This document shows, one piece after another, positions 29,706-34,021 of a stretch of DNA of 41,125 nucleotides; within the stretch, counting starts at the first letter, position 1; every line of letters starts with the position of its first letter. The position numbers were made by a program, and so were the translations under genes. The notes below the pieces were generated by a model that saw only the letters and a program-made list of their open reading frames with translations, was not told the DNA's origin and did no database searches. Source of the stretch: a virus; IMG/VR virus record IMGVR_UViG_3300045970_001152. One strand, given 5' to 3'.

Positions 29706-30773
29706 CTACTCGATGTCGATGACGCGGCCGAACTGGCCCGCACGCACCGACCGAATGCCAGCCTGCTTCGCAGTCTCATCCACCGCCAGTTCGGACATCG
29801 CGGCAAGGAGACTGCGAACCTCGTCCGTGGAGTGATTCACCTGCTCCGCGGTGAGCTGCCAGTCGGTCTCTCCATTCCCGCCCTGCTTCAAGAACCGGGC
29901 GCGGATGGACTTAATCGTGTCCTCGAAGGTTGAGGTCCCCGAGAAGTTGACCGCCGAGAAGGTCTCGAAGGCCTCGAAGAGAGGCCGGAGGTTCTTGGGG
30001 TTCAGCTTGCCGTTGGTCTCGAGCAACCTCTTGGCCTGCGAGGCTGCCTCTCCGAGCTGCTGATGCATCATGACGGAGACTTCGCTCACCCAGTGGTTGA
30101 GGTCCCGTCGCACCCTGTTCTGCTCAGCGAGCAGCGTCTCAGCATCCAGGGTGGACATCGACTCCACGCCCTCGAGCGGCGTCATCTTGAACATGCGCCA
30201 CTCGAAGTTGTAGCGGCTGCGCAGGTGCGAGACGTCCGGGTACAGGGTGCGGTTGATGGCCTCCTGCTGCTTCACCCAGATGTCGAGCTCCTTCACCTTC
30301 GCTGCGTACGCGTAGGGGGCGACCTTGTTGGCCTCCTTCTCCGCGATGTTGCGTGCCTGCTGGGTGAGCTTCTCGAGCTGCTCCTCCTTGAAGCGAGGGT
30401 AGCCCGCGATGAGGTCGTCCACGGCGACATCCCACTGCGCCTTGAACTCCTGGAGTCTCCGCAGTACCTCGCGCAGCGCGTGGTAGGAGACGTACTTCGC
30501 ATTCCCGATTGGGAACGGGACGGAGCGGTTGTCGAGGAACCTCCGCGCATGCCCCTCGATGAACTGGAGACGCTCTTGTGCCTGACGCGGCAGGAGCTTC
30601 TTGTGCCCGATGTAGAAGGCACTCTTGTCGACCTCGTCGATGAGGAGGTCGCTCTCGTTCATCTTCTTGTTCGCGGTCCAGCGACCGATGTAGAGATGAA
30701 ACAGCGTACCGGTATCAAAGAGAACGCGGGTGATGCCGCTCTCCTGCCGGACGGACACAGGAGGGTTGGGCAC
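29706..30773 (-). CDS. Hypothetical 355-aa protein ending in ...GRVIDIE. Last gene of the AAA-ATPase module.
   Basis: Long ORF with good codon usage. Its C-terminal 7 residues and 21 nt are shared with gene 36730..37944. Confidence 0.6.
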   Translation of the reverse strand: MPNPPVSVRQESGITRVLFDTGTLFHLYIGRWTANKKMNESDLLIDEVDKSAFYIGHKKLLPRQAQERLQFIEGHARRFLDNRSVPFPIGNAKYVSYHALREVLRRLQEFKAQWDVAVDDLIAGYPRFKEEQLEKLTQQARNIAEKEANKVAPYAYAAKVKELDIWVKQQEAINRTLYPDVSHLRSRYNFEWRMFKMTPLEGVESMSTLDAETLLAEQNRVRRDLNHWVSEVSVMMHQQLGEAASQAKRLLETNGKLNPKNLRPLFEAFETFSAVNFSGTSTFEDTIKSIRARFLKQGGNGETDWQLTAEQVNHSTDEVRSLLAAMSELAVDETAKQAGIRSVRAGQFGRVIDIE

Positions 30774-30774
30774 C

Positions 30775-30978
30775 CTACCCCCCGGTGTGCGAGTGGTCGT
30801 GCGACTCGATCTTCTGGCTGCCCTCGGGCTTCATGTCGCGCTTCTCCACCTTGCCGAGAGCGTCCTCGAGGGACTTGGTCTCCGCGAGGCAGGCGTTGCC
30901 CACGAAGCCGCGGGTCGGCTCGGCCTTGACCGTTCCGTCCTTGGCGATGGTGACCTTGATCTCCTTCAACGTTGCCAT
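30775..30978 (-). CDS. Small protein resembling the DUF2997 family (IKVTIAKDGTVKAEPTRGFVGNACLAETKSLEDALGKV).
   Basis: 67 aa. AAGGAGGAAGC directly upstream of the ATG. Family assignment is from memory and needs an HMM check. Confidence 0.55.
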   Translation of the reverse strand: MATLKEIKVTIAKDGTVKAEPTRGFVGNACLAETKSLEDALGKVEKRDMKPEGSQKIESHDHSHTGG

Positions 30979-30987
30979 GCTTCCTCC

Positions 30988-31542
30988 TTACAGCGTGATC
31001 ACTCGGCCATGCCGAATGCGGGTGTCGTTGCGCTGCGCTGCCTGAACGTCTTCGTCGGAAGCCAGGCGCCGGCGCGGGCCGGTCTGCGCGGGGGCTCCGG
31101 CGTCCATCTTCTCGAGCTCCTCACCGGCGCGGAAGCGCCGCATGATCCCGGCCACCTCGCTCTGGATGAGGTCGAGGTGCTTGCAGTGCCGGGGCTTGGG
31201 CAGCCCGGTCTCCTTGTCCTTGCGCTGGAAGACCCAACCCATGCAGTTGCAGCGCAGGGTTCCGTCTTCCTCGAGGCGCGTCTCGTAGTTCACGATGAAG
31301 CCGCCCCTGGGCTGGCTCGATGCAAAGGCCCAGGTGTAGACCGGCTCCCCGTACTCTCTCTTGGCAGGGTCGCTGTTGGTGGTGTCCCTGCCAGTCCTGA
31401 CACTGCGGCGTGGCATGTTGATCTTCCTCCTCTGGCGTGAGGGGAGAGGAGCCGGCACCTCCTCTTCGAAGGGCCGGACCCTCTCCTCGTAGAGCCGGTG
31501 CGAGAGGTCGGCGATCTGGTCGATCACTCGCCTTCTCGGCAT
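30988..31542 (-). CDS. SWIM zinc-finger protein (CNCMGWVFQRKDKETGLPKPRHCKH).
   Basis: 184 aa with the CxCxnCxH motif. Basic N-terminus. Ends ...GRVITL. Confidence 0.55.
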   Translation of the reverse strand: MPRRRVIDQIADLSHRLYEERVRPFEEEVPAPLPSRQRRKINMPRRSVRTGRDTTNSDPAKREYGEPVYTWAFASSQPRGGFIVNYETRLEEDGTLRCNCMGWVFQRKDKETGLPKPRHCKHLDLIQSEVAGIMRRFRAGEELEKMDAGAPAQTGPRRRLASDEDVQAAQRNDTRIRHGRVITL

Positions 31543-31546
31543 GGCT

Positions 31547-31972
31547 CTACCCGTAGCGCTGCGCCGTGAGCTCGATCTCGCCGGTCTTCAGGACCTGGCG
31601 CTGCACCTGGTAGCCCTTGGCCTGGAGCTGGCCAGTGGACACCTTCTCGGCGTAGTACTGCGCGACGAGATTCTGGTGCTCCTGCGGGAAGCCATCCATG
31701 TCGACGTGGACGTCGTACCCGCCCTCCTTGTTGCGCTCGTAGCCCAGGTCGTTGGACGCCACGTAGCGGCCGAGCTTCTCGCCCTGCGCCGCCTTGCGGA
31801 CCACGATGTTGGCCTTGAGGTTCGCCTTCTGCCCAGCGTAGTTGAGGAGGTCCACCTTCTTGTCCCCATGGGACTCGACCTTGCCCTCACCGAAGTGCTG
31901 GACCAGCGCTGCCACCAGCTCAGCCTCGAACTTCTGCTGCGCCTGGATGTTCAAACGAACGTAGTGGGACAC
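31547..31972 (-). CDS. Protein resembling the DUF1257 (Ycf35-like) family, with a GTG start (VSHYVRLNIQ...).
   Basis: 141 aa. AAAGGAGAA lies 6 nt upstream of the GTG. The N-terminal MSH(F/Y).. pattern recalls DUF1257. Needs an HMM check. Confidence 0.5.
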   Translation of the reverse strand: MSHYVRLNIQAQQKFEAELVAALVQHFGEGKVESHGDKKVDLLNYAGQKANLKANIVVRKAAQGEKLGRYVASNDLGYERNKEGGYDVHVDMDGFPQEHQNLVAQYYAEKVSTGQLQAKGYQVQRQVLKTGEIELTAQRYG

Positions 31973-32018
31973 TGCATTCTCCTTTCGTGAGACATCAACC
32001 TACTGCGAGGGTACGACA

Positions 32019-33614
32019 TCAGGCGTCGATGCGACGACCAGCGACGCCCATCTGGGCCTGGACGGAGACCTCCTTGCGGTTGGCGGGGCGGGTGCGCGCA
32101 GCGCACCAGTTGCGGAGGAGCTGGAGCCTCTCCAGCATCGTCTTGGCGATCGGCTGCGTGGAATCGAAGGCCTCCTGGAGGTCCACGGAGTTGAGGTCCC
32201 TGTTGTTGTGGTAGGCGACCCGCATGGCCTGCTCGATAGCTCCGTCGATCTCTGCGCCGGTGAAGTCCTTGCTGGTCTCGCCGGCGAAGTGGTCGAGGTC
32301 GATCTTGGCGGGAGTGCCACCGACGTGCTGGTAGAGCGCTTCCCGGTTGCGGCGCTTGATGTGAATCATGAGGATCTCCCTCCGCTCCTTCTTGGTCGGA
32401 AGGTCGATGGAGAACATCTCGTCGAAGCGGCCCTTGCGGAGGAGCTCCGGGGGCAGCATCGTCACATCGTTGGCGGTGGCTACCACGAAGACCGGGCTGG
32501 TCTTCTCCTGCATCCAGGTGAGCAGCGTGCCGAGCACGCGTGCCGAGACGCCAGAGTCACCGTGACCACCTGAGGCACCTGCGGCCCCCTTCTCGATCTC
32601 GTCGAGCCAGAGGACGCAGGGGGACATCGCTTCCGCGAGGCGAATGGCCATGCGGATGTTGGCCTCGGAGGAGCCGACGAGGGACTGGTAGAGCTTGCCC
32701 ATGTCGAGCTTCAGCAGCGGCTTGCCCAGCGCGGCCGCGGCCACCTTCGAGAAGAGCGACTTGCCGGTGCCAGGAGGACCGACCAGCAGAACGCCCTTGG
32801 GGTACGCCAGGCCGAAGTCGAGCGCCTCCTTCGTGAAGGCGCGCTGGAGCGGCCGCACCCAGTCCTTCAGCTCCTCCATGCCGCCGATGACCTCGAGGCC
32901 CGCCGGGACATCGCGGATGTACTCGAGCAGCTGGCTCTTGCGGAGCGCGAAGCACTTCTCCCGGATGACGATGGCCGGGTCCCACAGGTCCTCGAGCTTC
33001 CGCTTCCCCTGCTTCCGGGGCTCGATGATGGACAGCGTGAAGGCGTTCTCGGCTTCCTGCGTGGTGAGCCCCTTGGCAGCGTCGATGAGGAGCTTCTTGC
33101 GATCTGCATCGGGACGCTTGTCGGCGGCGATGCCGGAAGCCTCGAAGATGCCGTCCAGCACCGCGGTGAGGCTCTCCTCGTCCGGGAGCGGAGCCTCGAG
33201 CAGCGTGATCTCCTTCTCGACCTCCGGCGGCAGGACGACGACTGGCGAGAGGATGATGATCATCTTCCTCGTCAGCTTCATCTCGGGGATGACGTCCAGG
33301 AGCAGCGCCTGCACGTTGAGGTCCGGGAGGAAGTGGTGGAACTGGCGAAGGACCAGGATGGAGTCCTGTGGCAGGTCCTTGATCTTCTCCAGGGCTGTGG
33401 TGGGCATCCCGGTTCCCTGGAGGGGAGCCGTGGTGCGCCTGGAGTCCTCGATGATGCCCTTGTTGATGGTCCAGAAGAACATCTTGCGCTTCAGGACGTC
33501 CGCCGCCTGGCGGATCTCCCGCAGCGTTCTCTGGTCCTCGAGGCTCTGGAGGTAGATGGCGGCGTAGCCCGCCTTCCCTCGCACCTCAAGCAAGTCGATC
33601 AGCTTCTCGGTCAT
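32019..33614 (-). CDS. AAA+ ATPase (classic AAA, Ycf46/CDC48-like) with an N-terminal domain of about 270 aa.
   Basis: 531 aa. Walker A is [10 protein letters not shown]. Walker B is VLWLDEIEK. Sensor 1 is VVATAN. The arginine finger region is [12 protein letters not shown]. Confidence 0.85.
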
Positions 33615-34021
33615 GCTTCCCTCCTGGCCGTTCTGAGCATGTGGTGTTCTTGCGCCATGGTGACAAAGCGCGAGTCGGCGTTGGTCACGGAGTGGCCGTT
33701 CTCGGCAATGCCGAGCCAGTTCTCAGCACCGAAGTCGATGTCGCACTCCGACTTCTCGATGTCGAACGAGAAGCAGCTCAACATCAAGTAGGGCCCTTGA
33801 AGGGCGCTGATGGGATCCCCCTCGGAGTTCACAGGAGCCTCCCAGCACTCCAGCGTGACCAGCGAGGCGATGGGCCTGACGAACGGGGTACCGTCGTCTC
33901 CGGCAAAGACGCTCACCGCGCCTGGCGGGGGTGTCGATGTCCCGACCACCTTGTAGCGTGTCTGTGTGCCAAGGGAGGTTCCTCCAACGATGAGGGACTC
34001 CCAGAGTTCTCTGATTGTCAT
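33611..34021 (-). CDS. Hypothetical protein (MTIRELWESLIVGG...).
   Basis: Internal Met 134 of ORF 33611..34420. GGAGG lies 6 nt upstream. The longer N-extension is an Arg-rich artefact. ATGA overlap with the AAA gene. Confidence 0.55.
   Translation of the reverse strand: MTIRELWESLIVGGTSLGTQTRYKVVGTSTPPPGAVSVFAGDDGTPFVRPIASLVTLECWEAPVNSEGDPISALQGPYLMLSCFSFDIEKSECDIDFGAENWLGIAENGHSVTNADSRFVTMAQEHHMLRTARREA

Follow-up and report, generated by a model that had tools for sequence, protein, structure and literature searches.

The DNA analyzed here is a 41,125-nucleotide (nt) stretch from a virus (IMG/VR virus record IMGVR_UViG_3300045970_001152), referred to below as the window. It is part of a large phage genome, and contigs as long as 109 kb and 198 kb also encode the identical ATPase. 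Our subject is a block of six genes at positions 29706 to 34021, which had been singled out from the letters of the window (here referred to as the sequence-only reading), and above all the short C-terminal peptide that its AAA+ ATPase shares with several neighboring proteins. The six open reading frames (ORFs) are real, all lie on the minus strand, and are tightly packed. The ATGA stop/start overlaps by which the block had been described as coupled occur at two junctions (34018 to 34021 and 33611 to 33614), while the other genes are set apart by 46, 4, 9, and 1 nt, and AGGAG-type ribosome-binding sites are present there. The most informative feature of the block is the GRVIDIE tail of its 355-amino-acid (aa) protein. 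The tail is present as had been described, the protein listed as unknown belongs to DUF3150, and the ending is shared by four proteins of the window, namely, the ATPase (AGRRIDA), a SWIM-type zinc-finger protein (HGRVITL), the DUF3150 protein (FGRVIDIE), and a SLOG protein (PGRIIDIED). All four are encoded within one 8.5-kb co-directional stretch (Table 1).

The conserved module is wider than the six-ORF block: it extends from 29706 to at least 35334 and includes the SLOG gene at 36730 to 37944. The 136-aa and 161-aa ORFs are lineage-specific and lie outside it. The former had been counted as an unknown member of the module; it is indeed without a match in Pfam, PHROG, PADLOC, or NCBIfam but does not belong to the conserved set, and the 161-aa ORF gave no family match in Pfam or PHROG. 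The adjoining SLOG-HNH-helicase block is as had been proposed: upstream of the SLOG gene lie genes for an HNH-motif protein (…CKWCNG…HHHKR…CKKCHDAHH; 37941 to 38657, minus strand) and for a 781-aa ResIII/DEAD helicase with two HA domains (38769 to 41114, minus strand). At the other end, the DUF3150 gene converges with a gene encoding a GH108 endolysin, and the hairpin between the two is likely a bidirectional terminator that closes the operon; it is not listed in a consensus terminator scan, which needs a T-run.

Table 1. Genes, C-terminal tails, and hairpin of the module region (positions in the window)
Feature	Position	Strand	Basis or remark
SLOG/YpsA-like protein, 404 aa from called start, tail-bearing	36730..37944	-	Pfam and gene call
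184-aa protein, N-terminal ~100 aa = u184N family, tail-less	34780..35334	-	Local iterative HMM
161-aa zinc-ribbon-like ORF, lineage-specific insert, ATGA-coupled to next gene	34018..34503	-	Only near-identical L004, L005
136-aa ORF, no family, ATGA-coupled on both sides	33611..34021	-	Homologues only in L004, L005
531-aa Ycf46-type AAA+ ATPase	32019..33614	-	Pfam AAA, phrog_8638, AF2
DUF1257 (Ycf35-like) protein, 141 aa, GTG start, tail-less	31547..31972	-	Pfam, alignment A3
SWIM-type zinc-finger protein, 184 aa, tail-bearing	30988..31542	-	Conserved CxC...CxH signature
DUF2997 mini-protein, 67 aa, tail-less	30775..30978	-	Pfam, alignment A4
DUF3150 protein, 355 aa, ends FGRVIDIE	29706..30773	-	Pfam
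SLOG protein C-terminal tail GRIIDIED	36733..36756	-	Sequence
ATPase C-terminal tail GRRIDA, Arg = R527	32022..32039	-	Sequence, alignments A1/A2
SWIM protein C-terminal tail GRVITL	30991..31008	-	Sequence
DUF3150 C-terminal tail GRVIDIE	29709..29729	-	Sequence
Perfect 11-bp GC-rich hairpin GGAGGGGGCCC-GCAA-GGGCCCCCTCC	29675..29700		Between convergent DUF3150 and endolysin genes

The 531-aa protein had been taken for a classic AAA ATPase with a large N-terminal domain. Pfam places an AAA domain (PF00004) at residues 275 to 404 (E value of 4.5e-30), and the N-terminal part is itself a degenerate AAA (D1) domain. Over its full length the protein belongs to phrog_8638 (1e-127), and the nearest sequence relatives of its ATPase domain are the D2 domains of Cdc48, p97, and VAT. 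In an AlphaFold2 (AF2) model based on a 116-sequence alignment (predicted local distance difference test [pLDDT] score of 92), residues 1 to ~205 form a second alpha/beta AAA-like domain with a lid (D1-like), residues ~230 to 507 form the canonical AAA domain (D2), and residues 510 to 531, comprising a linker and the tail, are disordered, with a pLDDT of 44 to 54 for the tail. Foldseek aligned the whole chain with the D1-D2 regions of p97, Cdc48, NVL, Rix7, and AFG2 (E value of 4e-24; TM-score normalized to the query [TMq] of up to 0.66; ~550 to 590 columns). As modeled, the ATPase is a p97/Cdc48-type D1-D2 tandem in which D1 is degenerate and D2 is active, judging by its residues; the earlier idea of a remodeling or unfolding machine fits such a model.

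The residues agree with this division of labor. D1 has no Walker A or B motif, and its P-loop position reads YLQSLEDQR. In D2, residues G279, G282, G284, and K285 (Walker A), E339 (Walker B), N382 (sensor 1), and R393 and R396 (Arg fingers) are invariant in the family, and D338, the Asp of Walker B, reaches ~90% conservation in the larger of two ATPase alignments (A1, 27 sequences; A2, 116 sequences). The D2 pore loop reads S-L-V-G and contains no aromatic residue. The chain begins at the D1-like domain, and a p97-type double-psi-barrel N-domain is absent. The NCBIfam CDC48 model scored 107 bits against a cutoff of 803, and scores were also far under the cutoffs for FtsH, PAN, and IetA; the ATPase therefore belongs to a distinct family that is a relative, and not an orthologue, of Cdc48. 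Searched alone with HMMER against the full library, the D1-like domain matched 2132 representative clusters at an E value of ≤0.001 and 558 at ≤1e-10. The Joint Genome Institute (JGI) label of the protein, "SpoVK/Ycf46/Vps4," is a broad COG name. Full-length cyanobacterial homologues of 502 to 541 aa with ~36 to 44% identity are present in Microcoleus, Pseudanabaena, Microcystis, Leptolyngbya, and others, in unannotated records for which Ycf46 is a candidate name. Both Ycf46 and Ycf35 are ORFs conserved in plastids and cyanobacteria, and DUF1257 and DUF2997 travel with them.

To define the module, we used 80 viral and 80 bacterial/archaeal metagenome-assembled-genome (MAG) loci, each with an ATPase alignment, and locally built iterative hidden Markov models (HMMs); individual loci are cited by L numbers. 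DUF1257 was found in 79 of these loci and DUF2997 in 64; without exception, both were encoded on the strand of the ATPase, mostly no more than 2.5 kb away. The association of an AAA ATPase with DUF1257 and DUF2997, which the sequence-only reading had likened to a cyanobacterial neighborhood, recurred in cyanobacteria as a 116- to 148-aa DUF1257 gene directly following the ATPase gene. Its co-conservation also extends to many viral contigs, to further bacterial genomes, and to Rhizobium phage RHph_I4 and Aeromonas phage HJ05, in which the ATPase is followed by a ~210-aa protein, DUF1257, DUF2997, and then a small protein. A review on cyanobacteria (PMC4284462) notes a cluster of DUF2997, ycf35, and fed7. 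The clade of the window comprises 11 lineages (window, L005, L006, L007, L015, and L182 to L187) with ATPase identities of 45 to 95%. Where both flanks were sampled, the gene order in this clade is u184N, AAA, DUF1257, SWIM, DUF2997, and DUF3150; the tails are on the same families throughout, and a SLOG/YpsA gene lies a few kilobases upstream wherever it was found in the sampled flank. The phage neighbors are replication genes: helicase, HNH, and SLOG and, in relatives, ligase, ribonucleotide reductase (RNR), DnaB, and Pol I. In one subclade, an rIIA-like gene (HATPase_c_3, weak) and rIIB are found between DUF2997 and DUF3150 (L184:13229-16298, L185:13197-16314, and L186:13435-16564).

Three small proteins of the module bear no tail. 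The DUF1257 and DUF2997 assignments proposed earlier were both upheld by Pfam, the former with 30.7 bits against a cutoff of 22.2 (PF06868; E value of 3.8e-07; precomputed Pfam matches on relatives concur) and the latter with 52.4 bits against 24.1 (PF11211; E value of 4.8e-14). The GTG start of the DUF1257 gene yields a conserved N terminus, Met-Ser-His (window positions 31964 to 31972), that is nearly invariant among 37 diverse sequences. The AF2 model of this protein (pLDDT of 91) is a small alpha+beta domain and not an N-terminal nucleophile (Ntn) hydrolase. In DUF2997, Cys30 within G..G..C is invariant in 40 sequences (alignment A4), and the C terminus of the window protein is His-rich (HDHSHTGG). 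The Met-Ser-His of DUF1257 and the Cys of DUF2997 may form a metal or active site common to the pair. A natural DUF1257-DUF2997 fusion in L025 (= P0142; L025:9179-9760) argues that both act together; further fusions of this kind were sought, and solely this one was found. A 420-aa DUF1257-containing protein (L156:11648-12910) has extra regions without a Pfam match.

The third tail-less family, u184N, was found in 23 loci by a local iterative HMM and in all of L182 to L187. Its invariant residues are G13, S38, W51, and E95 (alignment A6), and in most relatives its gene stands directly before the ATPase gene and overlaps it. It matched neither Pfam nor the PDB, and no solved structure of any relative was detectable by sequence. 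We considered u184N as a relative of DUF2997, but hhalign aligned only a 17-column N-terminal hairpin at a probability of 60%, and the two were kept as separate families.

The tail-bearing partners are of different kinds. The SWIM finger named in the sequence-only reading rests on its signature, CNC-x21-CKH at residues 98 to 122, with CxC(P/M)(G/S)W...CKH kept in 13 of 13 distinct relatives, although the Pfam SWIM model (PF04434) gave no match to this 184-aa protein at an E value of up to 0.1. Enlarged SWIM proteins of 661 and 817 aa (L007:10140-12125 and L187:12108-14561) retain the tail and carry the zinc finger near the C terminus, and their extra regions have no Pfam match. A second SWIM-type protein in the window (…GRWGCNCGDWQYIHSVKGGDCKHIK…; 27591 to 28109, plus strand) belongs to the convergent late block and has no tail; at the equivalent position, L182 and L185 give weak SWIM HMM matches (E value of ~3e-4). 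The DUF3150 match (PF11348) covers residues 23 to 212 of the 355-aa protein with 44.3 bits against a cutoff of 24.9 (E value of 1.8e-11); its relatives are likewise annotated PF11348, and DUF3150 adjoins the ATPase in 22 viral loci. The SLOG protein matches YpsA (6e-15) and DNA_processg_A (5e-09) in Pfam and has a C-terminal extension of ~230 aa that ends in the tail. Tailed SLOG homologues occur in L005, L007, L182, and L187, and the SLOG protein of L183 has a weaker, extended tail variant (RRHVEIGDDEPE).

The tail motif consists of five C-terminal residues, R-x-hydrophobic-(D/E)-hydrophobic. In the ATPase, its Arg (R527) never varies in A1 and is kept in at least 90% of the A2 sequences. The surrounding residues vary: close relatives end in GRxVEA, actinophage-type contigs in GRALDL, Mycobacterium phage Catdawg in VRVLDL, and Melainabacteria in GRTLDF; the cyanobacterial tail (EYQRMEF) is one residue shorter, the L007 ATPase ending TRVVES lies outside the motif pattern, and some ATPase lineages have no tail or end in an acidic DEDDL. 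A version of the regular expression that also accepts the shorter cyanobacterial form matched 17 of 65 full-length ATPase representatives in an unbiased 50%-identity sample, and many more of the 65 bear degenerate forms. The strict expression matched 0.5% of background ORFs of at least 80 aa in the fetched loci and 25% of the ATPases. Among the partners it matched 6 of 16 DUF3150 proteins, 6 of 7 SWIM proteins in the first set of loci, and all 3 SLOG proteins; the SWIM tail is also present in all six of L182 to L187. It matched none of the DUF1257 (0/71), DUF2997 (0/54), u184N (0/18), or major vault protein (MVP) (0/8) sequences.

Tails are concentrated around the ATPase gene. ORFs on its strand within 4 kb were ~10-fold likelier to be tailed than other ORFs of the same loci (P = 1.4e-8 for viral loci and P = 1.8e-6 for genomes), and partner tails co-occurred with ATPase tails (odds ratio, 6; P = 5.8e-6). 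In L146, eight tail-bearing ORFs form a tandem array upstream of the ATPase; the member tested has a ComEA-like HHH_3 domain (Pfam) preceded by a hydrophobic N terminus, as read from its sequence. Similar HHH_3-type tail bearers are found in L153, L176, L127, and L035, with HHH_3 in the five proteins tested. WGR-domain tail bearers occur in three loci (L175, L037, and L044), and one DUF6744 protein is also among the tail bearers. The HHH_3, WGR, SWIM, and SLOG/DprA-like domains of these proteins are all of nucleic-acid-associated types. Partner tails ([FY]-G-R-[VI]-hydrophobic-E/D-hydrophobic) are more hydrophobic than ATPase tails (G-G-R-[AT]-L-D-L) as a tendency, which is compatible with competition for one site. 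Some tails gave the impression of being genome specific, which a permutation test did not bear out (P = 0.71). A column-by-column comparison of aligned ATPases with and without the tail was dropped because a single tail-less clade dominates it (P281Q in 16 of 17), so that it is confounded by phylogeny. In 111- to 113-aa proteins of actinophage-type loci, a DUF2997-like domain was indicated by a weak local HMM only (E values of 0.05 to 0.6) and not confirmed by Pfam. A different C-terminal motif (…NADDFGFFDN / …ADDFGLI) is shared by four neighboring 259- to 369-aa ORFs of the uncultured megaphage LR756500 (L016:26372-29942), which thus offers a second example of tail-sharing neighbors.

Several known AAA+ systems resemble the module in part. 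Like Cdc48, p97, and VAT, the module ATPase is predicted to have a D1-D2 fold, its D2 is closest in sequence to the D2 of Cdc48 and VAT, and it has a flexible tail after D2; unlike them, it has no p97-type N-domain, no D1 Walker motifs, and no aromatic pore loop. The tail of p97 binds PUB/PUL domains, and the HbYX motif of archaeal Cdc48 binds the 20S proteasome. The module tail is neither HbYX nor DDLYG, and the module encodes no partner of the proteasome, PUB, or PUL type. C-terminal docking motifs are shared among proteins elsewhere, as with HbYX on Rpt, PAN, Cdc48, Blm10, and Pba and GQYL on Mpa and Bpa, and the HslU tail inserts into HslV. The module looks comparable in that one C-terminal peptide is found on an AAA+ motor and on unrelated proteins, with constant tail-less partners alongside. 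It differs in that its tail bearers are small DNA-binding-type proteins and not ring-shaped caps and in that no peptidase family was recognized in the operon with Pfam, PHROG, or NCBIfam. Tails are also read by unfoldases: the XB peptide of SspB by the ClpX zinc-binding domain, the MuA C terminus by ClpX, and the MIM of ESCRT-III by the Vps4 MIT domain. In those systems, too, short C-terminal peptides bring several proteins, including a DNA-protein complex (MuA), to one AAA+ machine, but the motor itself is untailed, whereas the module motor is tailed. The cyanobacterial and plastid Ycf46-Ycf35 pair is a candidate counterpart: the full-length cyanobacterial ATPase homologues have a DUF1257 gene directly downstream and the EYQRMEF tail variant.

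We propose, with moderate confidence, that the operon encodes an ATP-driven, segregase-type machine in which the shared tail docks the motor and its partners on one receptor of the module. The motor would be a Ycf46-family AAA+ protein, presumably hexameric, with an inactive D1-like ring domain, an active D2, and a flexible C-terminal linker that ends in the R-x-hydrophobic-(D/E)-hydrophobic peptide. This peptide would serve as a docking strand by which the ATPase and its partners, most of them nucleic-acid binding, plug into a common receptor inside the module. The ATPase would thus be coupled to DNA-bound complexes, which it would remodel or extract in the replication phase of infection; the replication-gene context and the domains of the partners suggest such remodeling. 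DUF1257, DUF2997, and u184N would be the likeliest receptor or hub, because they are constant and tail-less, and the D1 ring of the ATPase would be an alternative receptor. Disorder of the tail in the AF2 monomer is as expected of a docking peptide; the tail is not docked in cis in that model, which says nothing about binding in trans.

Several points weigh against this proposal. Docking is predicted, the receptor is a candidate, and the DNA-related role would follow from the domain types of the partners. ATPase and partner tails do not covary within genomes beyond the general consensus in the permutation test cited above. The association of an ATPase tail with detectable DUF1257/DUF2997 is not significant (odds ratio, 1.9; P = 0.09) and therefore does not pinpoint the receptor. 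In actinophage-type loci, the ATPase and a 250- to 300-aa neighbor are tailed but DUF1257/DUF2997 are not detectable, and in cyanobacterial loci the tail is solely on the ATPase, with no SWIM, DUF3150, or SLOG partner seen. Finally, classical threading is not assured, because the SLVG pore loop is non-aromatic.

A strong rival is that the tail is a degron-like recognition tag read by the D1 ring or the pore of the ATPase, with the SWIM, DUF3150, SLOG, WGR, and HhH proteins as substrates to be unfolded, recycled, or switched. The tail of the ATPase itself would then be an autoregulatory pseudo-substrate, by analogy with the MuA C terminus for ClpX and the MIT-MIM pairing of Vps4 and ESCRT-III. 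The ATPase is the sole component shared by every tail-bearing locus, including the actinophage-type loci just described; multi-paralogue arrays such as that of L146 look like substrate families; the greater hydrophobicity of the partner tails fits competitive displacement; and the ~20-residue linker could bring the tail to D1, as far as its reach can be estimated. The AF2 monomer, however, leaves the tail undocked on D1, a protease partner is absent, the pore loop is non-aromatic, and this explanation leaves the three constant small tail-less proteins unaccounted for. We regard it as possible but somewhat unlikely and favor reception of the tails by DUF1257/DUF2997, possibly with u184N.

The sequence-only reading had also raised the idea of a conflict system, for which we found no specific support. 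Here, the module would serve phage anti-defense or cellular defense, with the ATPase acting on immune complexes of the host or an invader and the tail serving for assembly. The partner set is variable and lineage specific, as might suit such a role, and counter-defense-like genes are nearby (an ORF with an Acb2/Tad1-hairpin match in the window and an Acb5 match in L183). The SLOG protein matches the ShosA model (7e-09), and the ATPase domain resembles the IetA and TRIP13 models. The resemblance to IetA concerns the ATPase core (2e-23 in PADLOC and 4.5e-21 in NCBIfam) and is confined to residues ~264 to 488, and its 75 bits fall far short of the 510 that NCBIfam requires; the module has no IetS-like protease neighbor, and its ATPase has a D1-like N-domain and a tail. 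The PADLOC matches are thus limited to generic ATPase and SLOG cores without IetS or any other signature partner, and neither PADLOC nor NCBIfam assigned the module to a defense system. Moreover, the family includes near-universal cyanobacterial copies beside DUF1257, which point to housekeeping or stress roles, and the phage operon sits amid replication genes. A conflict role appears unlikely on this evidence.

MVP genes near the module raise a further explanation, in which the tail is a cargo signal into an MVP-built compartment or capsid. The window encodes an 879-aa MVP homologue (11642 to 14281, minus strand; MVP_shoulder, 6.8e-28; Vault_3, 1.5e-09) on the strand of the module, 18 kb away. 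In relatives, an MVP-like gene lies 2 to 2.6 kb upstream of the ATPase (L184:5508-8174, L185:5273-7924, and L186:4614-7352) or, in a different arrangement, directly after DUF2997 in L007/L026 (L007:12841-15396), and the MVP proteins are themselves without a tail. However, no MVP gene was found within 10 kb of the module in L182, L183, L187, or any of the 80 bacterial loci, many of which are tailed nonetheless. RHph_I4 and HJ05 gave no MVP match, and among 50,697 phage records only three uncultured megaphage records matched. Other MVP loci (L016 to L021) have neither the module nor tails nearby. We therefore reject MVP as a general partner of the module and regard the link as clade-specific, because other MVP loci are without the module and bacterial loci are without MVP. 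A cargo signal is accordingly a very unlikely function for the tail.

A broader scheme would combine the proposed docking with this neighbor: an ancient, previously unrecognized tail-docking network around Ycf46-family ATPases in plastid-lineage cyanobacteria, many other bacteria, and large phages, functionally HbYX-like and with DUF1257/DUF2997 as a new receptor. In a clade of 100- to 200-kb phages, the machine would be coupled to a vault-like MVP shell and would load tail-tagged DNA-binding proteins or extract them. We offer it as a speculation that is quite unlikely to hold in full. An origin of the common endings in coincidence or composition, with genes that are just loosely linked neighbors, is extremely improbable: the motif is short, degenerate, and without within-genome covariation, but its neighborhood- and strand-specific enrichment recurs in two independent data sets, its frequency is 0% on DUF1257/DUF2997/u184N versus 37 to 100% on SWIM/DUF3150/SLOG, and the same tail marks the same families across 11 lineages of 45 to 95% ATPase identity.

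Phage MVPs have been reported before (bioRxiv 10.1101/2023.11.10.566534), with flanking proteins conserved between a phage and a Clostridium contig; the matched text of that preprint does not mention an ATPase. A preprint on bacterial MVPs contains none of the neighborhood terms searched, and our literature searches found nothing on the gene neighbors of phage or bacterial MVPs. The same searches found no function for DUF1257, DUF2997, or DUF3150 and no work on Cdc48-like ATPases of phages. Nor did they yield an account of the link between the ATPase and DUF1257/DUF2997, of a Cdc48-like architecture with a degenerate D1, of a common tail that recurs on SWIM, DUF3150, SLOG, WGR, and HhH proteins, of u184N, of a DUF1257-DUF2997 fusion, or of MVP genes adjoining the module. 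The shared peptide offers a cheap experimental handle on the binding partners and targets of the ATPase, and through it these old unknowns become directly testable. A phage module wired to SWIM, WGR, HhH, and SLOG proteins and repeatedly found beside MVP may reveal a new DNA-protein remodeling or compartment route in large phages, and a portable five-residue docking tag would be a useful tool.

Other features of the window lie apart from the module genes. A hairpin with a 15-bp stem (36248 to 36281, minus strand), at the very start of a 221-aa ORF (35609 to 36274), is in the list of the terminator-like scan. The ORF with the precomputed Acb2/Tad1-hairpin Pfam match, a family of anti-CBASS/Thoeris sponges, encodes 72 aa at 23874 to 24092 (plus strand), and a Cpn10/GroES-like gene is located at 22475 to 22900 (plus strand). 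A transposase-like ORF (8593 to 9537, minus strand) matches phrog_10081 (1.8e-16), and a methyltransferase gene (15960 to 16832, minus strand) matches phrog_15480 (3.7e-28).

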